From the NCBI GenBank assembly GCA_035378845.1, contig DAOSUP010000009.1, forward strand, positions 546-64,545: a stretch of 64,000 bases of DNA. Direction: 5' to 3'. A model generated the notes under the pieces. It worked only from the letters and a program-made list of their open reading frames with translations. It did no database searches and was not told where the DNA came from. This stretch comes from Dictyoglomaceae bacterium. Lineage in GTDB: Bacteria > Dictyoglomota > Dictyoglomia > Dictyoglomales > Dictyoglomaceae. The stretch's first letter is position 1. The number at the start of each line of letters is the position of its first letter. The translations under genes and the position numbers were made by a program. Positions 1,046 through 55,919 of the stretch are shown in pieces.

Positions 1046-3083
1046 AGGTTTTAAACATTCAAGACTTATTATCATTCTCTCTCTGATCCTATTTATCTTA
1101 TCCATCTACCTTACATTAAATGTAAAGGTAAACTATGATATATATTCTTTCCTTCCCCAAGAACTTTCTTCTGTAAAAGCATTAGAAATTCTAAATGAAA
1201 ATTTCAAAATGGGAGAAGAAAGTTATATAATATTACCCTTCAAAGATCCTATAGAGATAGAAAGACTTAGGAATCAAATATTAAAAATAGAAGGGATAGC
1301 AAAAGTATCATGGATCTCTGATTTTCAAGATATATATTTACCTGACTACTTCTGGGGAAGTATAAAAGATCAATTTATAAAAGATAATTATACCTTTTTA
1401 ACAATTACTTTTTCAGAATCATCTCAAAGTCCTACTTCTGAAAAAGCAGTAAAAGAGATTCAAAAGATTCTACCTAAGGGGAGTTATTTTACAGGAACAG
1501 CTGTTATTGGTCAGGATCTAAAAAATATAAGTCAAGAGGAGACAATAAAATATCTATTAATAGGTAGTGCCTTTGTAATGATCTTCCTCTTCTTCATATT
1601 CCCATCTATGTATGTGCCTTTAATCATCTACTTCAATATGATTTTAGCAATTGTAATAAATACTGCTCTATCTACTTTATTAAATCAGGAGATAAGCTTC
1701 ATCTCAAGAATAATTGTGGGCATATTCCAGATGGGATCTACTATGGATTATGCCTTATTCCTTTATCATAGGTATGAAGAGGAATCAAAGAGAAAAGACA
1801 GGGCAGAAGCAGGATGGGAGGCAGTAAGAACCACAGCAAAAAGTATTATTGCCAGTGCAGCAACTACGGTTGCAGGATTTCTCGCCATAACTCAGATGAG
1901 ATTTGAATTAGGAAAAGATTTAGGATTCCTCTTAGCAAGAGGAGTTTTTACCTCCTTCATTCTCTCTTTAACCCTTCTTCCTGTACTTTTTTATCATTTC
2001 CACAATAAATGGGCATATTCAAAGAGATGGATCCTAAGAGTTTCTGGAGAAAGATTTTTTAATTTTATTCTTAAAGTAAGGCATATCATTCTTGTTATAT
2101 TCTTAATAGGAGCTGTAAGTTTATTCTTAATTCCAAAATTTCCTATGGATTACAATATCACTCGTGGCTTACCAGAAAATATTCCATCTATAATGGGACA
2201 AAGGAAGATGGAAGAGATTTTTGGTAGAAGCTCCTCACTATCTCTTGTAGGAAAAGAGACACCTGAAAACTGGCAGAAAGTAATAAAGATATTAAAAGAA
2301 AAGCCTCAAGTCTCAAATGTTCTTAGCTATTATAATATGGTAGATCCACTCATTCCAGAATATATGGTACCAAAATCAGTAAGGGATATCTTTTTTAAAG
2401 ATGGGTTTTCCTACGCCTCCTGTGACCTTAATGTGGATTACTCCAGTGAGGAAGCTTACAAATTGATAAAGGAGCTTAGAGAAGGTATAGAAGATCATTA
2501 CGATATCAAAATTACAGGGCTTCCTGTCCTAAATTTAGATTTAAAAGATCTTACAACTACAGAGTTAAATAAAGTAAATCTTATCTCTATTATAGCCATA
2601 TTTTTAATCATAGCCCTATCTTTTCTTTCCATTCCTATACCAGTACTTTTGGTACTTGTAATAGAATTAGCTATAACTTTAAACTTAGCTATAGACTATA
2701 TTACATATGGATTTATATTCTTCTCTTCTTATCTTTTCATTGGATGTATCCAGCTTGGTGCAACCATTGACTATGCAGTACTTCTTACATCAAGATACTT
2801 AGAGGCAAAACAAAAGGGATTAGATAAATTCTCATCTGCAAAATTCTCCTTTTCAGGAGGAATAAACAGTATTCTTACCAGTGCAGGTACCATGTTCTTT
2901 ACAGCCTTACCCTTAGGTATCTTCTCTAATATCTTTATGGCAAAGAACCTTGCCATGTTGGTAAGTAGAGGAGCAATCATAAGTGTCATCTCGGTATCTT
3001 TATTTGTGCTTCCTCTTCTTACCGTCTCTGATTCTTTTCTTTCAAAACTTGGATTTATAAGAAAGGAGGGAAAAAAGGAATGA
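1026..3083 (+). CDS. MMPL/RND-superfamily membrane exporter
   Basis: 685 aa with two multi-helix TM bundles, each followed by a duplicated motif (GSTMDYALFLYHRY and GATIDYAVLLTSRY), and soluble loops between them. The start overlaps the uppP end by 20 nt. Confidence 0.75.
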   Translation: MKKLYLKGFKHSRLIIILSLILFILSIYLTLNVKVNYDIYSFLPQELSSVKALEILNENFKMGEESYIILPFKDPIEIERLRNQILKIEGIAKVSWISDFQDIYLPDYFWGSIKDQFIKDNYTFLTITFSESSQSPTSEKAVKEIQKILPKGSYFTGTAVIGQDLKNISQEETIKYLLIGSAFVMIFLFFIFPSMYVPLIIYFNMILAIVINTALSTLLNQEISFISRIIVGIFQMGSTMDYALFLYHRYEEESKRKDRAEAGWEAVRTTAKSIIASAATTVAGFLAITQMRFELGKDLGFLLARGVFTSFILSLTLLPVLFYHFHNKWAYSKRWILRVSGERFFNFILKVRHIILVIFLIGAVSLFLIPKFPMDYNITRGLPENIPSIMGQRKMEEIFGRSSSLSLVGKETPENWQKVIKILKEKPQVSNVLSYYNMVDPLIPEYMVPKSVRDIFFKDGFSYASCDLNVDYSSEEAYKLIKELREGIEDHYDIKITGLPVLNLDLKDLTTTELNKVNLISIIAIFLIIALSFLSIPIPVLLVLVIELAITLNLAIDYITYGFIFFSSYLFIGCIQLGATIDYAVLLTSRYLEAKQKGLDKFSSAKFSFSGGINSILTSAGTMFFTALPLGIFSNIFMAKNLAMLVSRGAIISVISVSLFVLPLLTVSDSFLSKLGFIRKEGKKE

Positions 3084-4429
3084 AGAAGGGAATTATAATC
3101 ACTATCTTACTTTTACTTCTCATAAGTATATCTTTTCCCTCTTCTTTAAAAATAAAGAATGACGAGACCATATACGCACTATTAGACTATGATGGAAAGG
3201 TAAAAAGAGTAGATCTTGTAAACTGGATTGAGATAGAGGGAAGTGGTCACTTTAATATTACCAAGGATGCTAAATACTTGAAAAATATCAAGCTATTTAC
3301 GGAAGATGTAACATTAAGTATCTCATCTCAAAAAATAAATCTTTCAGGAAATTCTCAAGGGCATAAGAATATCTATCTCACTTCCGAAGTAAATAGAAAA
3401 CTTCCTATGCAATTTAAAATCTCATATAAATATAATGGGAAAACAGCAAAGCCTCAAGATTTTCTTGGAAAATCAGGAGATCTTGATATAGAATTTGAGA
3501 TTGAAACTCTTGAAGATATTCCCTTTGTGGTTGTAATCTCTGCTGAATTTTCCACAGATGATTTCATACTTAGAAATCCAGAGGATTGGATGGTAATGGT
3601 GCTTGGAAAAACCATAAGACTTTCTGGTTTTAGCTATCCTATCCCAAAAAGCAGCATTAAGCTCGCCATAAGAGGTAAAAATCTAAAAGTCCCTGACTTT
3701 ACTTTTAGTGCTCTTCCATCTATTCCTCCCGTTGATCTTTCTATAACATCTCAGTTAGGAAGCTTTACAGAAGGTTTAGATGGTCTTATCCTTCTAAACC
3801 AAGTTCATCAGAAGATATTAAAAGGTATCATTGAGAACTTTGAGAAACAGTCTTTTTCTATCCCTCCAGAGTTTTTAACTCTTCCATTTACGCTTAAGGC
3901 AAATCAGAACAAAGCATATGCTATCTCCAATTCTCTAAAAAAATATCCTGAAAGTTTTGAGAAACTATATACCTATATAAAGGAAGAAGCCGAAGGAAGT
4001 AATGATGAGAAATGGCAAAAAGCACTAAATATGGCAGAGGACGTGAAAAAAGAGATAGAAGGAAATTCCTTCTCAGAAGATGTTAAAAGTATAGGGGACT
4101 TTATTGGAGATATCGCCTTTTCCAGCCAAAAAGCCATGAACATGATATCTACCTCATTAGAAGGATTGCAAAAGGTAGAGGAACTTTTGAATATTGTGCT
4201 TAATGGAGGAGAGCTTGAAGGACAAAAAGTTCCAGGGCTTACCGATGTAGAGAAAAATCTAAAAGCCACATCTAAGACATTAAAAGAAAATATTTCAAAG
4301 GCTACCGAGGGCGAGAAAAAGATGGGAATATGGAAGAAAAATATTGCAAATTATAATTTCGCAGGAAAGGTTGAGGGAGCAAGCTCAACAGTAAGATTTT
4401 ACTTCAAATTAGAAGAGCTAAGAAAATAG
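3080..4429 (+). CDS. secreted or membrane-anchored protein of unknown function with an E/K-rich coiled-coil C-terminal half
   Basis: N-terminal hydrophobic signal (MKKGIIITILLLLLISISFPSS). ATGA start/stop overlap with the MMPL gene implies translational coupling. I recognise no family motif. Confidence 0.6.
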   Translation: MKKGIIITILLLLLISISFPSSLKIKNDETIYALLDYDGKVKRVDLVNWIEIEGSGHFNITKDAKYLKNIKLFTEDVTLSISSQKINLSGNSQGHKNIYLTSEVNRKLPMQFKISYKYNGKTAKPQDFLGKSGDLDIEFEIETLEDIPFVVVISAEFSTDDFILRNPEDWMVMVLGKTIRLSGFSYPIPKSSIKLAIRGKNLKVPDFTFSALPSIPPVDLSITSQLGSFTEGLDGLILLNQVHQKILKGIIENFEKQSFSIPPEFLTLPFTLKANQNKAYAISNSLKKYPESFEKLYTYIKEEAEGSNDEKWQKALNMAEDVKKEIEGNSFSEDVKSIGDFIGDIAFSSQKAMNMISTSLEGLQKVEELLNIVLNGGELEGQKVPGLTDVEKNLKATSKTLKENISKATEGEKKMGIWKKNIANYNFAGKVEGASSTVRFYFKLEELRK

Positions 4430-19454: not shown

Positions 19455-20564
19455 TTACTTTTTCACTTTGTATGAATATGTTATGTTATAAGTACTATTC
19501 TTACTAACCTTTACTATAAATCTTATGGTATCCTCATCTATCTTTTCATAAGGATGCGTAGAGCTTAAGATCTGAAAATCACCATAAATATTGTCTAAAA
19601 CTTCAATGGTAACATCTTCATCTTTCCTATTAGTAAGAGTTATCTGGGCAGTAATTGTTTCATAGGTATAATCTTTTATCTTTTCTACCTTCCTATCCAA
19701 GATCTTAGATTCTCCAAGAAGATCAAAATCTTTACCTTGTACTACCTCTATCTTTTCATTCTCAGGAATATCAGAAATATTAGATTCTCCTATGAATACC
19801 ACCTTACCATCATTAAGAGTAAACATCTTTAATGATCCTTGAGGAAGAGGTATGCCAAGCCCATTCTCCTTAGTATTTGCTATAATCCATTTTATAATTG
19901 CATTCTTACTTCCAGAATCCACATCATAGATATATTTTTTCTCTGCATTTTTCACCCAAGCATCTAAAAGAGGAACAATAGTTACACTTCCTTGGGAAAT
20001 ATTCCATTCCCCAGGAAGATTATATATTTTGTATCCTTCCACACTTTCAGGAACTGGCATCGCTAAGCTGAAAGCCTGCTCTGCCATTACTGCCTTACTC
20101 ATAAGAGGAAGCTCATTCCCAACATTCACCCCTCCTGCAAGTACTGATATCTTTGCACCTTGAAAACTCATCCCAGAACTATTCCTTATATTTATATTTG
20201 TATTAAATCTAACCTTTTCTCCGTCTATAAAGACCATATGTTGAGCAGCCCAGTTTATACTTGGTTGTACATAAAAGATCACAAGCTCCTCTTTCATATC
20301 TTCTGGAGATTCTATCATTATTCCTTTTGGTGGATAAAGAATTTCAACAATCTTTGCTTCTTTAAGAGGCAAAATAAAGAAGGAATCAGAGGCAATATTT
20401 TGAGGAATCTCATCAAGAGATACAAAATTTACGCCCTTTTTGAGAGATACCTCCTTAGTAAAAGAGATTACTGCAAAATTATTCTTATATACCACCATAG
20501 AACTCTGGGCAAAAGTCAAAGAAAAAAGAAAAACTAAAACTAAAAGGAAATAGGTAGTCTTCAT
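19455..20564 (-). CDS. secreted DUF4139-like protein, function unknown
   Basis: Signal peptide followed by a beta-rich 369-aa protein. Its overall pattern resembles the DUF4139 (mucoidy-inhibitor-A-like) family from memory; function is unknown. Confidence 0.5.
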   Translation of the reverse strand: MKTTYFLLVLVFLFSLTFAQSSMVVYKNNFAVISFTKEVSLKKGVNFVSLDEIPQNIASDSFFILPLKEAKIVEILYPPKGIMIESPEDMKEELVIFYVQPSINWAAQHMVFIDGEKVRFNTNINIRNSSGMSFQGAKISVLAGGVNVGNELPLMSKAVMAEQAFSLAMPVPESVEGYKIYNLPGEWNISQGSVTIVPLLDAWVKNAEKKYIYDVDSGSKNAIIKWIIANTKENGLGIPLPQGSLKMFTLNDGKVVFIGESNISDIPENEKIEVVQGKDFDLLGESKILDRKVEKIKDYTYETITAQITLTNRKDEDVTIEVLDNIYGDFQILSSTHPYEKIDEDTIRFIVKVSKNSTYNITYSYKVKK

Positions 20565-38227: not shown

Positions 38228-39343
38228 ATGAAAATAGCATTTTTATCAAGTCCCATAGCCTATAATATTAATGAAAAGATAGAAGAAGCTAAAAACTTCT
38301 TAAGGAGATATTTAAACTTAGAAGAGAGCGAAGATCCTGATGCTATAGTCCTTCTCACAGGAGGAACAGAAGCATCATCTTTAAAATATTTAAAAGATGG
38401 ACTCTATATCATTCCCTTTGGAAAAGCCAATGGACTTGCAGCAAGCCTTGAGATACAAGGTTATGCAAGAGAAAAAGGAATAAAAACCATCTTAATTCCA
38501 AATATTACTGAAGATATAATCAAAACATTAAAGGTTATTGATGAATTGAAAAACCAAAAGATAGGGATTATTGGAAAGCCCAGTGATTGGCTCATAAAAA
38601 GCGGAAGCTATGATATCTTGAAAGAACTTCATTTAATCCCTATAGAAATACCTCTTTCTGAAGTAGAAAAATATTTAGAGGAAGATAATTCACTTACAGA
38701 AAAAATATGGGGACTTGCAAAAGAGAAAAAGACATCAAAAGAAGAGCTCCTTAATGCTACAAAAATCTACACCTCTTTAAAAAGAATTATAGAAAAATAT
38801 AATATTTCAGCTCTTACCATACGATGCTTTGATCTTGCAATAAACTTAAAAATTACTGGATGCCTTGCCTTATCCCTTTTAAATTCCGAAGGAATTATAT
38901 CCTCTTGTGAAGGAGATATAGAAGCTCTTGCTACCATGCTTTTAGAGAAAAAACTTACAGGGAAAACGCCTTTTATGGCAAATTTAGCAAAAATTGAGGA
39001 GGATAGATATACCTTTGCCCATTGTACCATGGCTATAGATATGCCAGAATATTTTAATCTTAATAGCCATTTTGAGACCTTAAGCAGTGTGGGGATTGAA
39101 GGATATATAAAGACTGATAAGATAACATTATGTAGATTAGGAAAGGGAAAGAAAATTATGGTAAGATCTGGGGAATTTATAGAGAAACCATTTGAAGATC
39201 ATATGTGTAGAACCCAAATTGCAGCCAGGATAAAAGATTCTTCATTTCTTAAAAATCCCATAGGAAACCATTTCATACTATTTTTAGGGGATGAGGAGGA
39301 TTCCATTAAAAACTTAACAAAAGTAGGGTGGGAGATTGTTTAA
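38228..39343 (+). CDS. sugar-isomerase-like protein (L-fucose/L-arabinose isomerase superfamily); function tentative
   Basis: 371-aa soluble protein. Its overall pattern (LTGGTE...IIGKPSDWLI...RCFDL...GC.ALS.LN..GI..SCEGD...FMAN...AHC) resembles FucI-like proteins from memory only. Confidence 0.4.
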   Translation: MKIAFLSSPIAYNINEKIEEAKNFLRRYLNLEESEDPDAIVLLTGGTEASSLKYLKDGLYIIPFGKANGLAASLEIQGYAREKGIKTILIPNITEDIIKTLKVIDELKNQKIGIIGKPSDWLIKSGSYDILKELHLIPIEIPLSEVEKYLEEDNSLTEKIWGLAKEKKTSKEELLNATKIYTSLKRIIEKYNISALTIRCFDLAINLKITGCLALSLLNSEGIISSCEGDIEALATMLLEKKLTGKTPFMANLAKIEEDRYTFAHCTMAIDMPEYFNLNSHFETLSSVGIEGYIKTDKITLCRLGKGKKIMVRSGEFIEKPFEDHMCRTQIAARIKDSSFLKNPIGNHFILFLGDEEDSIKNLTKVGWEIV

Positions 39344-39990
39344 CTTTCCACCACCTCTATATTTTTCACATTTTCCAGTTCCGAAAGTTTTGTGATGAGT
39401 TCTCTTTCTTTTAACTTAGCAGGAAGTCTTAAAACTATTCTAAGGGTTGCATCATCTTCATCAAGAGGAGAGACACCTATCTCTTTTATATCCACATCCA
39501 ATTCACCTAAAAGAGTACCTAATTTTCCAATAGATCCTGGTCTATCTTCTATAATACATTTAAGAACAACAAATTTATGCGTTTGTATAATTGCTACTTC
39601 AAACTTTGCAACAAAAAATAATATTAAAAAAATTAGAAAAGCAGTAAATGTTGCAGGAATATAAAGACCTGCTCCCACTGCAAGCCCTACCCCTGCCATA
39701 GTCCATATACTTGCTGCTGTGGTAAGCCCTTTGACTCCTACTCCCGTTCTTAAAATTGTCCCAGCACCTATAAAACCTATACCTGTGACAACCTGAGCAG
39801 CTATTCTTGTAGGATCCGCATTGGGAAAAGTATAAGCAGATACAATCATAAGAAGTGTAGAGCCAAGACATACAATTATATGAGTACGAAGACCAGCAGG
39901 TTTTTCTTCTTTTTCTCTCTCCCAGCCTACAATTCCCCCCAGTATAACAGAAAGAATAAGTCTGTAAAAAATTTCCGTATTGCTTATCAT
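39340..39990 (-). CDS. MgtC/SapB-family membrane protein with a C-terminal ACT-like domain
   Basis: N-terminal MgtC membrane domain (GGIVGWEREKEEKPAGLRTH...) plus a soluble C-terminal regulatory-type domain. Confidence 0.8.
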   Translation of the reverse strand: MISNTEIFYRLILSVILGGIVGWEREKEEKPAGLRTHIIVCLGSTLLMIVSAYTFPNADPTRIAAQVVTGIGFIGAGTILRTGVGVKGLTTAASIWTMAGVGLAVGAGLYIPATFTAFLIFLILFFVAKFEVAIIQTHKFVVLKCIIEDRPGSIGKLGTLLGELDVDIKEIGVSPLDEDDATLRIVLRLPAKLKERELITKLSELENVKNIEVVES

Positions 39991-40112
39991 AGTATGATAT
40001 TATACCATCAAAATCTTTATAAAAACGCTTTCCTGGTAAAACCTTTCTTTATTAGAAATAAAATTCTAAATATCAATAAAACTCTTAGCTAATACGTGTT
40101 ATATATAGACAC

Positions 40113-40141
40113 TTGATAAAATTAATATACTATTGTATACT
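40113..40141 (+). promoter_or_regulatory. candidate promoter of a short non-coding transcript next to the DnaA-box array
   Basis: TTGATA (40113-40118), 17-nt spacer, TATACT (40136-40141). Confidence 0.35.
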
Positions 40142-40210
40142 CAAAAAAATTTAAAAGATTTTTTAGTGTAGAGAAAAAAATCCATCCCAGTCAGAATTTC
40201 TTTTCTCAAA

Positions 40211-40240
40211 AGATGCCCCTTTAAGGGGCATCTTTTTTTA
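40211..40240 (+). terminator. intrinsic terminator (10-bp stem, T7 tail)
   Basis: agatgcccct-tta-aggggcatct followed by TTTTTTT. No plus-strand CDS lies upstream; the mgtC-like gene is on the other strand. Confidence 0.6.
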
Positions 40241-40260
40241 ATAGGAAAGCTTTTTTTAAA

Positions 40261-40507
40261 TTATCCACATTTTACTATTAATACTACAAAAGAGAATAAT
40301 AAGAATAAAATACTAGTAGTAGTAGTAAGTGTTGTGGATACTGTGGATAATCTTCCGAAAGATAGCAAATAGAAGTGATTTAATTGTGGATAAGTTTTCC
40401 TAACTTATTCACAATATCCACAATTTATAGCTTAAGGACAAAGTTATCCACAATTTATTAAAGTTATCCACAGACTTATCCACAAGCTATCCACATTTTT
40501 ATCCACA
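40261..40507. other. DnaA-box cluster: candidate chromosomal replication origin (oriC) or another high-density DnaA-binding locus
   Basis: Perfect TTATCCACA at 40261, 40444, 40464, 40476 and 40499. Perfect TGTGGATAA (reverse orientation) at 40342 and 40385. One-mismatch boxes at 40333 (TGTGGATAC), 40405 (TTATTCACA), 40414 (ATATCCACA) and 40487 (CTATCCACA). Confidence 0.8.
40314..40328. repeat. DnaA-trio-like trinucleotide run (TAG x4, TAA x1)
   Basis: tagtagtagtagtaa, separated by gtgt from two abutting DnaA boxes (40333-40350). A 44-bp tract (40270-40313) with about 84% A+T by my count lies on the other side. Confidence 0.6.
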
Positions 40508-40685
40508 ACTTAGGATATAGCTAAATAGAGGAAAGGTTAAAAATGATAGTAAAATATTAGGTTTTGAGAGGTTTTTTTAAGATGATACTACTCTATCATT
40601 GGAGAATAGGGTTTTTCCTATAATAGAATATATTTTTCATGGTCTCAATAATAGTTATATATATTAACAAAAAGCTTAATTTTTA

Positions 40686-41702
40686 TTATAGAAATTCCCT
40701 TATCCTATTTAAGAGATCCTTCATGGGATAGGTATCAAACCACTCTTTTCCTGTGAGTTCATTGGCATAAGCTTTGTAGATCATAGATACAAGATCCTTT
40801 AATTCCCTGGGAAGTTTTGGGGGATTTCCTACATAATCTTTCCAATGAAATCTATCTTTCTTTTTTGCTTCCTCAATCTCTTTATACCATTCGGTCTTTC
40901 TGTAAAATATTCGGGCAATCTCTTTACTTATAGGAATAGAGTTATACGTAAATCTACATTCATCAAGAGTACCTACAGCATCCACAAGAATGAAATTTCT
41001 TTCTAAGTCAAAGGCAAATTCTACCTTTCCATCTTCATTTATAAGTTCAATTTTTTCTCCTTCTTTTGTAATCATATCATCAATAAATAAAGTGCTATCT
41101 ATAAGATTACGAAACTCTTCCTCTGAAAGTCCACTGATCTCTCTTGCCTCATCTTTTGATAGATATCTATCATTGATCTCTAATTTTGTAGAGAAATCAA
41201 CTATAGGCTTTTCTAATTTCTCTCCAGGAGATGGAATCTTGGAAAGTCCAAGATTTTCTATCTTTAAGTTTCCCTCTTTTAATCTTCTAAACACAGAAGA
41301 CCCTTCAGGTAGAGAGTTTCTATAGATCACCTCTAAGGGTATTAAAAAGTTTAACTTCTCTTTTTTAAATATGGAATAATCATATACTCCATTACTTAGA
41401 TCAGGTTTTAGGACTCTTACCATTTTAAATTCCATGATATTTGATGGAGATTTCAATTCCGATAGACTTTTTACCTTATCATCTTCTACAATTCCTATAT
41501 AATGGGTTTTTATACCCATATTCTCCAATCTTTCAAAGAAATAAGAGGTAGCAATACATATAGCCTTTCCTTTATCCTCTATATGGTCTGGCATCTCTCC
41601 AAAGTCAAAGACTGAGTATCGGTCTGAGAATACAAATCTACCTCTTCCGAGAGAATGTTCTTTTGGATTTTCCAGTATGATAAGATCCTTTACGCTACCC
41701 AT
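40686..41702 (-). CDS. purC: phosphoribosylaminoimidazole-succinocarboxamide (SAICAR) synthase
   Basis: MGSVKDLI...GRGRFVFSDRYSVFDFG N-terminus typical of the long-form PurC. It overlaps purE by 8 nt. Confidence 0.85.
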   Translation of the reverse strand: MGSVKDLIILENPKEHSLGRGRFVFSDRYSVFDFGEMPDHIEDKGKAICIATSYFFERLENMGIKTHYIGIVEDDKVKSLSELKSPSNIMEFKMVRVLKPDLSNGVYDYSIFKKEKLNFLIPLEVIYRNSLPEGSSVFRRLKEGNLKIENLGLSKIPSPGEKLEKPIVDFSTKLEINDRYLSKDEAREISGLSEEEFRNLIDSTLFIDDMITKEGEKIELINEDGKVEFAFDLERNFILVDAVGTLDECRFTYNSIPISKEIARIFYRKTEWYKEIEEAKKKDRFHWKDYVGNPPKLPRELKDLVSMIYKAYANELTGKEWFDTYPMKDLLNRIREFL

Positions 41703-44224: not shown

Positions 44225-45202
44225 ATGTTTTTTGATCTTCCTCTCTCAGAACTTTATAAATATCTTCCTGAAAGGGAGGAGCCTAAGGATTTTGATGAAT
44301 TCTGGGAAAAAACATTAGAGGAGTCATCACAGTATCCTTTGGATCCTGTTTTTGATAAGGTAAAATTTGGACTGGATCTTGTGGAGACTTACGATGTGAC
44401 TTTTTCTGGATATAAAGGGCAGAGGGTTAAAGGTTGGCTTATTGTCCCTAAGGAAAGGAAGGATAAAATTCCAGGTATTGTGGAATATATAGGATATGGT
44501 GGTGGAAGAAGTCTTCCTTATGACTTTCTACTTTGGGCAAATGTGGGTTTTGCTCATCTTGTAATGGATACAAGAGGGCAAGGAAGTTCCTGGAGTCCGG
44601 GAGATACTCCTGATTATGATGATACTCCTTTTGATTCTGAATATCCTGGATTTATGACCAGAGGTATCTTAGCGCCTAAAAAATATTATTATCGTAGAGT
44701 TTTTACTGATGCTGTAAGGGCTGTAGAAACTATTATGGCATTTCCTGATGTGGATAAGAATAAGATAGGAATTACGGGTGGAAGTCAAGGTGGAGGAATT
44801 ACCTTAGCTGTAGCAGGTCTTTCTCCTCATGTAAAACTTGCAATGCCTGATGTACCTTTCCTTTGCCATTATAGGAGAGCTATAGAAATAACTGATGGTT
44901 ATCCATATCAAGAGATTGTGCAATATCTAAAAACTCATAGGGATCATGTAGATAAAGTCTTTAAGACATTATCCTATTTTGATGGAGTAAATTTTGCAGC
45001 ACGTGCTAAGGCTCCTGTTCTTTTTTCGGTGGGACTTATGGATATGATATGTCCTCCTTCTACGGTTTTTGCAGCCTATAACCATTACAAAGGTGGGAAG
45101 GAGATAAAAATATATCCCTTTAATGGTCATGAAGGGGGGGGGACATTTCATACCTTGGAGAAGGTAAAATTTGCAAGTAGGATTTTAAAAGGTTTCTTCT
45201 AA
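44225..45202 (+). CDS. CE7 acetylxylan esterase / cephalosporin-C deacetylase
   Basis: [13 protein letters not shown]...DFDEFW N-terminus, GGSQGG nucleophile motif and RGQG motif typical of CE7. Confidence 0.9.
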
Positions 45203-49046: not shown

Positions 49047-49658
49047 TTAATCTTTTGGAATTTTTAGGTCTTGCCTTCCATCTAAAGCATGAGCTAATGT
49101 TAGCTCATCAGCGAAGTCAAGCTCAGTGCCCACAGGAAGTCCATGGGCAAGTCTTGTTACTTTGACATTATATTCAGAAAGGATCTTCCCAATATACATA
49201 GCAGTTGCTTCTCCTTCAGGAGTAGAATCGGTAGCAAGGATTACTTCCTTGATACCTCCTTTTTCAACCCTATCTTTTAATTCAAAGATTCTTAAATCTT
49301 CAGGGAATACTCCATCAAGAGGTGAGATAAGTCCTCCCAATACATGATAGAGTCCATTATATTGAGATGTTCTTTCTATAGCCCATACATCTTTTGGTTC
49401 TGATACCACACAAATGGTACTATGATCTCTTTTAATGTCAGAACATATTTCACATGGATCTTTTTCGGTAAGATTGAAACAGATAGAACAATATTTTATG
49501 TTATTTTTAACCTTTAATATGGTATGAGCGAGTTTCTCCACATTTTCATGAGGCTGTTTTATAAGGTAAAAAGCTATTCTCTGGGCAGATTTAGGACCTA
49601 TCCCAGGTATCTTTGTTAGCTCATCTACGAGCTGATCAAAAAGACTTCTTTCTGCCAT
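49047..49658 (-). CDS. recR: recombination protein RecR
   Basis: HhH motif (IPGIGPKSAQRIAFYL), C4 zinc finger (CSICFNLTEKDPCEIC) and Toprim domain. Confidence 0.95.
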   Translation of the reverse strand: MAERSLFDQLVDELTKIPGIGPKSAQRIAFYLIKQPHENVEKLAHTILKVKNNIKYCSICFNLTEKDPCEICSDIKRDHSTICVVSEPKDVWAIERTSQYNGLYHVLGGLISPLDGVFPEDLRIFELKDRVEKGGIKEVILATDSTPEGEATAMYIGKILSEYNVKVTRLAHGLPVGTELDFADELTLAHALDGRQDLKIPKD

Positions 49659-49661
49659 TAC

Positions 49662-49979
49662 TTAGAAAAGTCCGGGTGGTAAAGAGAGTCCGTCAGTGAG
49701 TCCTCCCATCTTTTCAGCTGTCTTTTCTTTGGCTTTAGTTAAAGCATCCCTTAATGCAGCTGCCACAAGATCCTCCAGGACATCTACCTCCTCTTTATTT
49801 ACTACTTCAGGATCAATTTTTACCTCTTTTACATCTTCCTTTGCCGTCATAGTTATCTTGATTACACCACCACCTGCAGTACCCTCCACTAAGGTTTGTT
49901 CTAATTCTTCGTCAATCTTTGCCATCTTTTCTTGTATCTTTTTCAGTTGTTTCATGGCTTCAAAAGGATTACCCTTCAC
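49662..49979 (-). CDS. ybaB: YbaB/EbfC-family nucleoid-associated protein
   Basis: 105 aa with MKQLKKIQEKM...GTAGGGVIKITM, in the conserved position between dnaX and recR. Confidence 0.9.
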   Translation of the reverse strand: MKGNPFEAMKQLKKIQEKMAKIDEELEQTLVEGTAGGGVIKITMTAKEDVKEVKIDPEVVNKEEVDVLEDLVAAALRDALTKAKEKTAEKMGGLTDGLSLPPGLF

Positions 49980-49990
49980 GTTATTCCCTC

Positions 49991-51535
49991 CTAATCTATT
50001 ATTTTGCCTTTGAAAATATTCTTTACGTCTTCTGGAGACGCCTTTTTATCCTCTTTCTTAGGCTCCTCCTCTGATTTAGGATTATCAAAAAGAGAAGGAT
50101 TTTCATCTATCGTGGTAAATTTTATAGGAATTTGTGTACCGTAGACTTTTTTAATCTCCTCCTCTATAAAAGCTCTATTGGGTCTCTCTTCTAATCTTTC
50201 TTTTAAGAAGGATAAATTACTTGGAATACCAAGGACCAATCTCCCTTCGGAATCTATCTCTATAATTTTTGCCTCTCTAAGCATAGCTTCTAAGGATATC
50301 CTTCTCTTTTTTACTTTCTCAAGTACCTCTCCCCATCTATCTTTTATAGCATCTATATCCGATGCACTTTCTATAGGTTTTTTCTCTTCTTTTACCTCTG
50401 CTACCTTCTCTATATTTACCTCATTTACCTTAACCTGGGGAAGCTCAGCATCTTCTTTTAGAAATAGAGGAATAAGAGTCATCTCCATGAGAAGGGGTGC
50501 ATTGGTAAGATCTCTTAATCTATTTTCTAAGATGAGAATTTGGTCTATAATGTCCTGCAATCTTTTTATAGTAAATAGGTTTGTCTGATCCATAAGCTCT
50601 TGATATTCATCTTCTGTAAGGGAGAGAAGATTAGAAAGTCTTGGCTCAGCTTTTAAAAGAAGAAGATTTCTAAAATGTTGTAAAAGTTCTCTTACAAATT
50701 GCTGAGGATTCTTCCCCATCTGGAATATCTGTTGAAGAAGACTCCATCCTTCAGCAAGATTATATTCTCCCATTGCTTTTACAAAGGCATAAGTAAATTC
50801 ATAAGTGGGAAGTCCCAATAGATTTCTTGCAAGATCTTCTGTGATTTCCTGATCCGAATATATAAAAAGTTGCTCCAGAAGACTTATGGCATCTCTCAAA
50901 GAACCTTGAGATTGAAGGGATATAATCTTTAATGCCTCTTGAGATATTTTTACCCCTTCATTCTCAGAGATCTTAGAAAGTTGTTTTGCAATCTCATCTC
51001 TTGTTAATCTTCTAAAATCAAATCTCTGGCATCTGGAAAGTACAGTCAGTGGTACCTTTTGCGGCTCTGTAGTTGCCATAATAAAGACCACATGCTCAGG
51101 TGGCTCCTCTAAAATCTTAAGAAGTGCATTAAAAGCTTCATTAGTTAACATATGGACTTCATCAATGATATAGACCTTATATCGATCTCTTACAGGGAGA
51201 AGCCTTGCCTTTTCTCTTATATCTCTTATCTCATCTATGCCACGATTTGAAGCAGCATCAATCTCAATGACATCTATACTTCTTCCCTCTGCAGTTTCTA
51301 TACAAGAGTTACATTTTAAGCAGGGGGTTGGTGTAGGTCCCTTTTCACAATTTAAAGATTTAGCAAGTATTCTTGCAAGGGTAGTTTTTCCTGTGCCTCT
51401 TGGACCTGCAAAAAGATATGCATGGGCAATACGATTATACTTTAAACCATTCTGCAAAGTGACTACGATATGCTCTTGTCCTACAACTTCTTCAAAGGTT
51501 TGTGGTCGCCATTTTCTGTATAATGCTAAAGGCAT
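49991..51535 (-). CDS. dnaX: DNA polymerase III subunit gamma/tau
   Basis: Walker A GPRGTGKTT, zinc module CLKCNSC, SRC motif (LSRCQRF). Its ATG directly abuts the metG stop. Confidence 0.95.
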   Translation of the reverse strand: MPLALYRKWRPQTFEEVVGQEHIVVTLQNGLKYNRIAHAYLFAGPRGTGKTTLARILAKSLNCEKGPTPTPCLKCNSCIETAEGRSIDVIEIDAASNRGIDEIRDIREKARLLPVRDRYKVYIIDEVHMLTNEAFNALLKILEEPPEHVVFIMATTEPQKVPLTVLSRCQRFDFRRLTRDEIAKQLSKISENEGVKISQEALKIISLQSQGSLRDAISLLEQLFIYSDQEITEDLARNLLGLPTYEFTYAFVKAMGEYNLAEGWSLLQQIFQMGKNPQQFVRELLQHFRNLLLLKAEPRLSNLLSLTEDEYQELMDQTNLFTIKRLQDIIDQILILENRLRDLTNAPLLMEMTLIPLFLKEDAELPQVKVNEVNIEKVAEVKEEKKPIESASDIDAIKDRWGEVLEKVKKRRISLEAMLREAKIIEIDSEGRLVLGIPSNLSFLKERLEERPNRAFIEEEIKKVYGTQIPIKFTTIDENPSLFDNPKSEEEPKKEDKKASPEDVKNIFKGKIID

Positions 51536-53507: not shown

Positions 53508-55919
53508 TTACCAGTTTAATGAAAGATTACCACCTATTTGATATATGGAAAGGATACTTTCATTTAAAAAGCTATATATGTATTTTACAAAAATTTTACT
53601 ATTTTGTGAAATTTTTGTCTGATAGAAGGTGAGGCTAAGGATATATCTCTCTGCATTATTACTATAATTTTCATGGGTGAGTGAAAACTCTCCTTTACCA
53701 TTTAGGATATCTCTAAGGATTGATATGTCTTGTGCTCCATTCTTGTAATAACTCATAGAATAAGAGGCTTCCTTCCATATTCTTGTTATTTTTCCAGAGA
53801 GTTCATAAGATGAAAGCCTTAATTTTCCTTCAGAACTTGCAGATAGGCTTTTTAAAAATATACTATAGTAGTTATTCTCATAATAATCCAGAGATAGAGA
53901 GAGGTCCCATGCTTTTTGTTTAAGTATTAAATTTCCCTTAGAACTTAAAGTACGGATATTTTCTTCCTCATTAAGGAAATATCCAAAATAGAAAGAAGAA
54001 GGATTAAAGTAATAAGTAGAGTTTATAGACAGAGTATTTTTCTTCTCTTCAAGCTGTGTACTTCCAGATATATTTAGCCAAAAGTTTGAAAATATCATTC
54101 CATAAGAGCTTATGGAGAAGGCATTTATAGGATTTGCATCTTTATCAATCCTCTGCCAAGAGATATTTGTGATGACTTGAGGAAGTTTTAACTTTATCCC
54201 AAGGGTATCAGTCTTTGTATAGCTTAAAGCAGGAATAATAGCTTTATACACAAAAGTTATGGTAAGTCCTGAAGGTGGAGGATTTTTCCCCTCTTCATTC
54301 TCAAAAAATACACCTACAGAATTTTCCTCTATAAAATATTCCACAGTATAGGTTTCATAGGTACTATCAGGAAGATATAGGGTAAAAGTGCCATTATTTT
54401 CCACATATACACCATTTATATATAAATAAACTTCTATAGGGGTGTACTCCAATTTAAAAGAGAAGGTCCATCCATCAGTGATAAAATTCTGAGTTATCTC
54501 TGATGCTGTATTATAGTTTAGATTTTTCTTCTCATAATAATCTTCTCCTAAGAGAAATTCGTATTTATCTCCTAAGATATTGATATTTGCTCCTCTCTGC
54601 TCTTCCTCTAAGAGTAGATTTTGAGATGAAGTCTGTTTTTCATTATTGTATATAGAGGCTTTAAGACTTTTATTTTGAGGTGAGAAGTTATAACTTTTTA
54701 TATTTATAGTAGAAGACTCAGTATTTACCGTTTGAAAAGAGGCATTTAAGAAGGCAGGAGTATAAGAGAAGCTTACCCCTTCGGTGATTTTACTATTTTC
54801 TTTTTTAAAATTTAGGGCGAGATTTGTAGAGAATAAACTTAATGATAACTTATGATTCTGAACTTCTTTGCTGCTTGAATTTTCTTCATTTAAAAGATCC
54901 AAGCTATAATTTAAGAAGGAAAATGGGGTAAGATCTAAATTCAAAGAGAGTCTTTTAGCTCCCGGTGTTAGGTTAAAATTTCCAAGGATCTCAGATATAT
55001 AGGGATAGTCTTTTTCAGAACTTAAGAATTCAAAAGAGCCCTTTCCAAAGGAAGATTTGAAAGAAAGCCTCATATATCCTGCACTCCCTGAGAAGTCATT
55101 ATCAAGAAAGGAAAAAGCATATCTCCCCTCAGCATAGTTATTACTATCTTTATTAATATTAAAGCTAAATTCTAAAAATTCCCTTTCCGTAGGATTAGCA
55201 AAATTTTGCAAGGTTAAATAGGAGACTCCTAATGCCTTGTAGCTTAATGAGAGCCCATAGAGGTTATATACTTCTTGAGCTCCTGAAACTTCATATTCTA
55301 TGATAATCTCATCTTGGGAGGAGATTATAAAATTGAAGTAAAGAATTCCATAGGTATAATCAATGATGTAATCCATATCCCTTTCTAAAGTTTTTCCATT
55401 TAAAAATACCCTCTCCTTATATGGAATTAAGAAAAAATCACCTATAATGAAGGGTCCTTGAGTATCATTTCCATAGAATTTTTTGATCTTTTTCCTTCCC
55501 TCTATACTTGTGAAAATAAATTGTCCTTTAAAATCCTTATAAGCATAAGTACCTAAGATTCCATTAAGGTTCTTATTAAAAAGGGAGAGAGGGGATAAAG
55601 AAGTATTTAAATTGTTCCCTATATTTAAAGAGAAATTTTCTCCCTTTGCTATAAGAGTTATATTTTCTGGCTGTGATATATAGTTAAAGTTTAAAGATAA
55701 GTATGGGAGAAGATAGGAAAGAAAGAAACGAGAGTTTTGTTGGAAATATAGCCCCCTTTGAATATCTGAAGAGAGGTATTCCAGAGAGGAATCCCCACTA
55801 AAATATGCATAATAAGTGTTTAAATTTGTGGACCCATTTAGATTTACCGTTTGAGATAATGAGACTGAAATTAGCCTGATAAACAAAAAAAATATGAGCA
55901 GACATTTCTTTTTCATCAA
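53508..55919 (-). CDS. large secreted, beta-rich protein; likely outer-membrane/envelope protein of unknown family
   Basis: Signal peptide (MMKKKCLLIFFLFIRLISVSLSQ). 803 aa, rich in S/N/Y/F/L, with an alternating beta-strand-like pattern and a C-terminal aromatic residue (...GGNLSLNW). Confidence 0.5.
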   Translation of the reverse strand: MMKKKCLLIFFLFIRLISVSLSQTVNLNGSTNLNTYYAYFSGDSSLEYLSSDIQRGLYFQQNSRFFLSYLLPYLSLNFNYISQPENITLIAKGENFSLNIGNNLNTSLSPLSLFNKNLNGILGTYAYKDFKGQFIFTSIEGRKKIKKFYGNDTQGPFIIGDFFLIPYKERVFLNGKTLERDMDYIIDYTYGILYFNFIISSQDEIIIEYEVSGAQEVYNLYGLSLSYKALGVSYLTLQNFANPTEREFLEFSFNINKDSNNYAEGRYAFSFLDNDFSGSAGYMRLSFKSSFGKGSFEFLSSEKDYPYISEILGNFNLTPGAKRLSLNLDLTPFSFLNYSLDLLNEENSSSKEVQNHKLSLSLFSTNLALNFKKENSKITEGVSFSYTPAFLNASFQTVNTESSTINIKSYNFSPQNKSLKASIYNNEKQTSSQNLLLEEEQRGANINILGDKYEFLLGEDYYEKKNLNYNTASEITQNFITDGWTFSFKLEYTPIEVYLYINGVYVENNGTFTLYLPDSTYETYTVEYFIEENSVGVFFENEEGKNPPPSGLTITFVYKAIIPALSYTKTDTLGIKLKLPQVITNISWQRIDKDANPINAFSISSYGMIFSNFWLNISGSTQLEEKKNTLSINSTYYFNPSSFYFGYFLNEEENIRTLSSKGNLILKQKAWDLSLSLDYYENNYYSIFLKSLSASSEGKLRLSSYELSGKITRIWKEASYSMSYYKNGAQDISILRDILNGKGEFSLTHENYSNNAERYILSLTFYQTKISQNSKIFVKYIYSFLNESILSIYQIGGNLSLNW

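Follow-up and report, generated by a model that had tools for sequence, protein, structure and literature searches.

Whether a dense group of DnaA boxes marks the origin of chromosome replication when neither dnaA nor dnaN lies beside it is the question raised by an intergenic gap in the genome of an uncultured Dictyoglomaceae bacterium. That an origin may be situated apart from dnaA is well established, and the rarity that an earlier note on this DNA had implied for such an arrangement did not hold; the copy in the sister genus is already recorded in DoriC. We analysed the gap within the whole stretch of 64 kb in which it lies (hereafter the window) and compared it with homologous loci in relatives. 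The gap, which separates an mgtC-like gene from purC, is very probably a single-part, DnaA-dependent chromosomal oriC that does not adjoin dnaA. The earlier note had put it forward as a candidate of this kind, and the proposal is now supported by an unwinding module, a switch of strand composition, the conservation of the layout and the match with the origin of Dictyoglomus turgidum in DoriC.

The DnaA box cluster

Within 247 bp the gap holds seven perfect TTATCCACA boxes and four boxes with one mismatch, and all eleven boxes listed in the earlier note were recovered in the sequence. The perfect boxes start at 40261, 40444, 40464, 40476 and 40499 on the + strand and at 40342 and 40385 on the - strand; those with one mismatch start at 40405, 40414 and 40487 on the + strand and at 40333 on the - strand. 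Such a density is beyond chance, as had been claimed before. In dinucleotide-preserving shuffles of the 64 kb, perfect boxes were expected 0.64 times on both strands compared to eight observed, and none of the 100 shuffles reached eight. A cluster of several boxes close to TTATCCACA, one of the features sought in an oriC, is therefore present in the mgtC-purC gap.

The boxes are arranged in an orderly way. The leftmost one (40261-40269, +) is perfect, forms the left border of the presumed unwinding region and is invariant in four lineages. It is followed by a tandem pair on the - strand (40333-40350) that belongs to the unwinding module and consists of a perfect box at 40342-40350 and a box with one mismatch at 40333-40341 (GTATCCACA). 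A further perfect box on the - strand (40385-40393, TGTGGATAAGTTTTCC) is invariant in four lineages. Two abutting boxes with one mismatch each (TTATTCACA and ATATCCACA; 40405-40422, +) are box-like in the relatives too. The right end is a head-to-tail array of five boxes (40444-40507, +), again invariant in four lineages, of which all but the box at 40487 are perfect. The last four boxes of the array, from 40464 to 40499, are 12, 11 and 12 bp apart, which is about one helical turn and agrees with the 11-12 bp given before for 40464-40507; the direct abutment of the pairs 40333/40342 and 40405/40414 was also confirmed. The description of a left subset opposite in orientation to the right one was correct in part. 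The boxes at 40333, 40342 and 40385 are indeed reversed relative to the seven forward boxes across 40405-40507, but the leftmost box at 40261 is forward like the latter. Judging from its spacing and uniform orientation, the array at 40444-40507 is probably a platform for DnaA oligomerisation.

The eighth perfect box, absent from the earlier note, is at 44749-44757 on the - strand, 4 kb from the putative origin and inside an acetyl-xylan-esterase-like gene (44225-45202). The box is also present in L001 (1382-1390), L007 (5359-5367) and L011 (5401-5409), and in the Dictyoglomus loci it again falls within this gene. This conservation may be a mere reflection of the conserved peptide.

A putative unwinding module

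Next to the tandem pair we found a run of five DnaA-trios that had been overlooked in the earlier note. It occupies 40314-40328 on the + strand and reads 5'-TAG TAG TAG TAG TAA-3', or 3'-AAT GAT GAT GAT GAT-5' (TAGTAGTAGTAGTAA), the consensus trio being 3'-GAT-5' (PMC8287927). Within the 64-kb window TAGTAGTAGTAR is unique to this run (expected number, 0.01). A spacer of 4 bp, GTGT (40329-40332), separates the trios from the boxes, and its place is taken by GGAC, GGGG or GGGC in the relatives. Written in 3' to 5' notation the core is AATAGGTGT CATAGGTGT TGTG AATGATGATGATGAT, which starts with a perfect box, continues with a weaker box downstream and a gap of 4 bp, and ends with the five trios.

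This arrangement can be compared with the rules that Pelliciari et al. (2021, PMC8287927) worked out for basal unwinding systems, under which a single or tandem box must be separated by no more than 16 bp from a run of three or more NAN trios. In the same study a distance of 13 bp between box and trios was the most common one, and the gap between trios and box averaged 4 bp. The window conforms to the rules throughout, with a perfect and a one-mismatch box, a 4-bp gap, five canonical trios and a 13-bp spacer, the latter measured from the perfect box at 40342-40350 to the first trio.

On the far side of the trios there is an AT-rich stretch of 44 bp (40270-40313, 84% AT), which is bordered at its other end by the box at 40261. 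Its 30-mers are among the least stable 1% of the window, and the rest of the gap is partly as AT-rich. We assign the stretch as a candidate DNA unwinding element mainly from its position beside the trios.

Gene neighbourhood

Profile matches confirmed both flanks of the gap as the earlier note had named them. On the left, the mgtC/SapB-family gene (39340-39990, -) is transcribed away from the putative origin and matches NCBIfam PRK09977 MgtC/SapB with E=1e-42; the Pfam MgtC family was found in the related locus L001. On the right, purC (40686-41702, -; TIGR00081 purC, E=5e-61) has its 3' end towards the gap and is backed by purE. The genes dnaX-ybaB-recR, placed about 10 kb away in the earlier note, were found at 49047-51535, that is, 8.5-11 kb to the right. 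DnaA and DnaN domains are absent from all ORFs of the window, in agreement with the earlier statement that both genes are missing from it. Adjacency to dnaA or dnaN, which is a common but not a defining trait of an oriC, was therefore not found within the 64 kb. An mnmE gene said to lie 40 kb away could not be verified. What had been taken for it is probably the ORF at 3080-4429, which encodes 449 aa without a Pfam match, and no other ORF of the window is mnmE-like. A scan for tRNA and tmRNA genes returned none in the window. Three ORFs matched no Pfam family at E<=1e-5: the one at 3080-4429 (+, 449 aa) just mentioned, one at 19455-20564 (-, 369 aa) and one at 53508-55919 (-, 803 aa).

To the right of the putative origin, 14 of the 18 genes between 40686 and 59533 are on the - strand, which is head-on to the outgoing forks. 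Among these genes are purEC, recR-ybaB-dnaX, metG and those for pyruvate:ferredoxin oxidoreductase. The same layout is found on the purC side in two Dictyoglomus loci (L007 and L011), and it runs counter to the co-orientation that is usually seen.

The exact PurC protein of the window occurs in metagenome assemblies. Four independent metagenome contigs with an identical purC (L002, L003, L005 and L006) all end at about 40195-40250, within a conserved block and hairpin described below. These shared ends suggest that, on the mgtC side, strains differ or the assembly forks.

Strand asymmetry

Because the raw GC skew across the window tracks gene orientation, we used the GC and AT skews at third codon positions (GC3 and AT3) and regressed them on gene orientation together with a term for the side of a change-point. 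The regression covered 53 ORFs of the window, with gene orientation as covariate and 1000 permutations of gene order. For GC3 skew the best change-point fell at 40000-41000, where the residual sum of squares dropped from 767 to 457 with a side coefficient of +0.139. The best change-point for AT3 skew was at 39000-39500, and the mgtC-purC gap came within 2% of this best fit, with a coefficient of -0.085. In neither case did any of the 1000 permutations do as well. The + strand is C- and A-rich to the left of the gap, over 40 kb, and G- and T-rich to the right, over 22 kb. The switch at the mgtC-purC gap has the polarity of an origin, the reverse of that of a terminus.

The same analysis was extended to two Dictyoglomus loci, and in both of them the purC-mgtC gap contained the best GC3 change-point, with a drop in residual sum of squares from 451 to 81 for L007 and from 498 to 184 for L011. 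A switch of strand composition with origin polarity, another feature sought in an oriC, is thus present at the gap in the window, L007 and L011, as local evidence that spans 64 kb in the window and 21 kb in the relatives.

Conservation in Dictyoglomaceae

The order purE-purC, gap and mgtC, with the box cluster in the gap, was found in D. turgidum-like loci (L007-L010 and L067), in a second Dictyoglomus lineage (L011 and L012), in an uncultured Dictyoglomota genome (L033 and L068) and in further metagenome lineages (L069/L070 and L071/L072). At least five Dictyoglomaceae lineages besides that of the window thus share the layout down to the individual boxes, at a PurC identity of about 75% and an MgtC identity of 60% between the window and D. 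turgidum. The alignments show little or no change in the perfect boxes, tandem pair, trio run or box spacing, whereas the DNA between the boxes is variable. Some relatives have two or three canonical trios only, with adjoining TTG repeats, so the trio element is less strictly kept than the boxes. Dictyoglomus has two further boxes, whose counterparts near 40432 and 40509 of the window have decayed.

In other lineages of the family, the neighbourhoods of purC (L013 and L015) or of mgtC (L016, L017 and L018) contain no adjacent intergenic gap or box cluster. Their PurC is 78% and their MgtC 65-66% identical. It follows that the gene neighbourhood of the origin has been rearranged within the family.

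We also scanned a genome collection with a three-box pattern of 32 nt at helical-turn spacing and obtained 48 loci. A single one belongs to Dictyoglomota (L033) and the remainder to unrelated bacteria, and we therefore regard the pattern as a generic origin-style array. Eighteen of the loci are from Candidatus Poribacteria, with two on OZ242036.1 (L021 and L026), and Thermaceae and several Bacillota genomes contain the pattern as well.

A conserved unit beside the box cluster

Between mgtC and the first DnaA box there is a unit that appears in every origin copy fetched, i.e. the window, L007, L011, L033 and L067-L072, and that is composed of a promoter, a block CCCAGTCAGAATTTCYTTTCTCAAA and a GC-rich hairpin with a T-run. 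The promoter is sigma-70-like and points towards the box cluster (TTGATA-17-TATACT; 40113-40141, +; 10 of 12 positions matching). At about the same place the relatives have TTGCAA or TTGCAT-17-TATAAT. Judged by its sequence it is the putative start of a short transcript. The block, CCCAGTCAGAATTTCTTTTCTCAAA, is 25 nt long (40186-40210, +) and, apart from a single Y position, does not vary among the Dictyoglomaceae origin copies fetched. It is followed by a hairpin that resembles an intrinsic terminator, GATGCCCC-TTTAA-GGGGCATC with seven T (40212-40239, +); 21 bp separate its end from the first DnaA box.

The window version of the hairpin folds with -25.2 kcal/mol (z=-4.0). RNAalifold on the MAFFT alignment of the unit reported no covariation, with the terminator mis-aligned as its loop lengths differ, and for this reason the stem was compared by eye. 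Read in this way, the stem is retained despite two both-sided changes between the window and Dictyoglomus, U-A/A-U versus A-U/G-C, and the loop differs in nearly every lineage. A terminator scan of the window did not call the hairpin at 40212-40239, presumably because A/T pairs absorb the T-run.

Neither known RNA families nor an encoded peptide accounted for the unit in our searches. Rfam 15 gave no match at gathering score in the whole window. Within the gap nothing credible appeared at E<=10, where the best sub-threshold match scored 30 bits compared to a threshold of 47 and the matches centred on the terminator hairpin. Upstream of the block, all three + strand frames lack a start codon, and the unit contains no ORF. 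The 22-nt core of the block had no match in the scan of the genome collection. From these features the unit (40113-40239) looks like an undescribed RNA gene of 70-100 nt transcribed towards the origin. It may be new. One can imagine that it is an origin-coupled small RNA or short transcript with a part in the control of initiation, e.g. through supercoiling, an R-loop at the unwinding element or an action of the RNA on replication factors, but we consider this coupling unlikely; alternatively, the unit is simply a neighbouring sRNA gene.

Comparison with known origins

The closest counterpart is the predicted oriC of D. turgidum DSM 6724 (NC_011661; DoriC ORI92730237), for which supplementary file 3 of PMC8287927 gives the string AATAGGTGTTACAGGTGTCAGGGATGATGAT at 277077-277108. 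This string matches exactly in L007-L010 and L067, where it aligns with 40314-40350 of the window. The predicted origin near 277 kb is the orthologous locus, with purE-purC, the gap and mgtC, and it shares with the window the order and orientation of the boxes, the module of trios, spacer and tandem boxes and the remoteness from dnaA. Consequently, the origin proposed for the window is the ortholog of a known prediction, the origin of D. turgidum being itself a computational one. The two differ in the number of canonical trios (five in the window compared to three) and in the spacer (GTGT compared to GGAC), and the genes to the left of mgtC in the window are unlike those of D. turgidum. In the genome paper of this species, DnaA is Dtur_0001, RecR is Dtur_0259 and endonuclease IV is Dtur_0264, and the order of the locus tags agrees with the gene order in L007. 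If the locus tags follow the chromosome order, dnaA of D. turgidum is about 277 kb, or 15% of the chromosome, away from the origin site.

Both of the classical model systems resemble the window in some respects and depart from it in others. The compact, single-part oriC of E. coli, situated between mnmG/gidA and mioC, is flanked by transcription units like that of the window. It has boxes of mixed high and low affinity, IHF and Fis sites, 13-mer repeats and control by GATC and SeqA, and none of these E. coli-type features is evident in the window. The B. subtilis origin has two parts that flank dnaA, and it needs DnaD and DnaB. In contrast, the origin in the window would occupy about 250 bp in one compact piece, apart from dnaA, with an extra box beyond the AT-rich stretch. 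The basal unwinding system of B. subtilis oriC (boxes 6/7 and trios; PMC6669920, PMC8287927) is nevertheless built as in the window: the better box of a tandem pair is the distal one, about 4 bp separate the pair from repeated 3'-GAT-5' trios, AT-rich DNA comes next, and the spacing is the modal 13 bp. The E. coli origin, like that of the window, is separated from dnaA, and its score for the unwinding module is reported to be weak (PMC8287927), whereas the module takes its textbook form in the window.

Alternative explanations

A large group of DnaA boxes could also serve to titrate or recycle DnaA, like datA and DARS in E. coli or the DnaA-box clusters of B. subtilis, with the true origin situated beside dnaA. 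This would be in line with the lack of dnaA and dnaN in the window and with a gene orientation around the site that is not as expected around an origin. A non-origin cluster would be expected away from a strand switch and without an unwinding module, whereas here both the switch and the module of trios and AT-rich DNA are at the site. To our knowledge, titration sites do not combine DnaA-trios and an AT-rich stretch at the canonical spacing, nor do they show a skew switch. The polarity of the skew changes exactly at the gap in three genomes, the trios and the AT-rich stretch are present at the canonical distance of 13 bp, and DoriC puts the D. turgidum origin at the homologous site. We therefore consider titration or recycling without an origin very unlikely. 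DnaA also acts as a transcription factor, and the conserved promoter-terminator unit adjoins the box cluster, so the gap might instead let DnaA regulate mgtC, purEC or the short transcript and have no role in initiation. Eleven boxes, however, far exceed the needs of an operator, and their position suits one poorly: they are on the 3' side of purC, are separated from the short transcript by its terminator and precede the mgtC promoter candidates by more than 240 bp. The skew switch and the trios would be left unexplained as well. A purely regulatory role is extremely improbable in our view, and the operator reading was rejected on the position and number of the boxes.

The skew flip might instead have arisen at an inversion or rearrangement breakpoint, or at a terminus, and coincide with the box cluster by accident. 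In favour of a breakpoint, several metagenome contigs end at about 40195-40250, and the synteny of purC and mgtC differs in other Dictyoglomaceae. But the + strand turns G- and T-rich rightward, as it would at an origin, and on this ground the terminus was rejected. The flip also recurs at the same gap in both Dictyoglomus loci (L007 and L011), and in the window it extends over 40 kb leftward and 22 kb rightward. An accidental coincidence of this kind has next to no probability.

Proposed initiation and significance

From the sequence we infer DnaA binding, unwinding and firing at the mgtC-purC gap, the mechanism proposed here being drawn from the anatomy of the site and from the published system of B. 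subtilis. DnaA would occupy the seven perfect boxes, and the same-orientation array at 40444-40507, with its spacing of about one helical turn, would support a DnaA oligomer. The oppositely oriented tandem pair 40342/40333 would steer ATP-DnaA onto the trios of the + strand at 40314-40328. A DnaA filament on the trios may then stretch this strand and melt the AT-rich DNA at 40270-40313, with the box at 40261 as the far border, and the replicative helicase would be loaded after melting.

The general understanding of origins is unchanged by these results, as dnaA-remote origins and the box-plus-trio module are already established. What is new is the local strand asymmetry, the conservation across lineages and the trio/box module in a second lineage, and these strengthen the database prediction for Dictyoglomus. 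The unit of promoter, block and terminator at the edge of the origin is the sole element that could lead to something new. For this uncultured thermophilic lineage of Dictyoglomaceae, the placement of a very probable origin would provide a reference position with which genome bins could be oriented and closed, and growth rates estimated by means of read depth.
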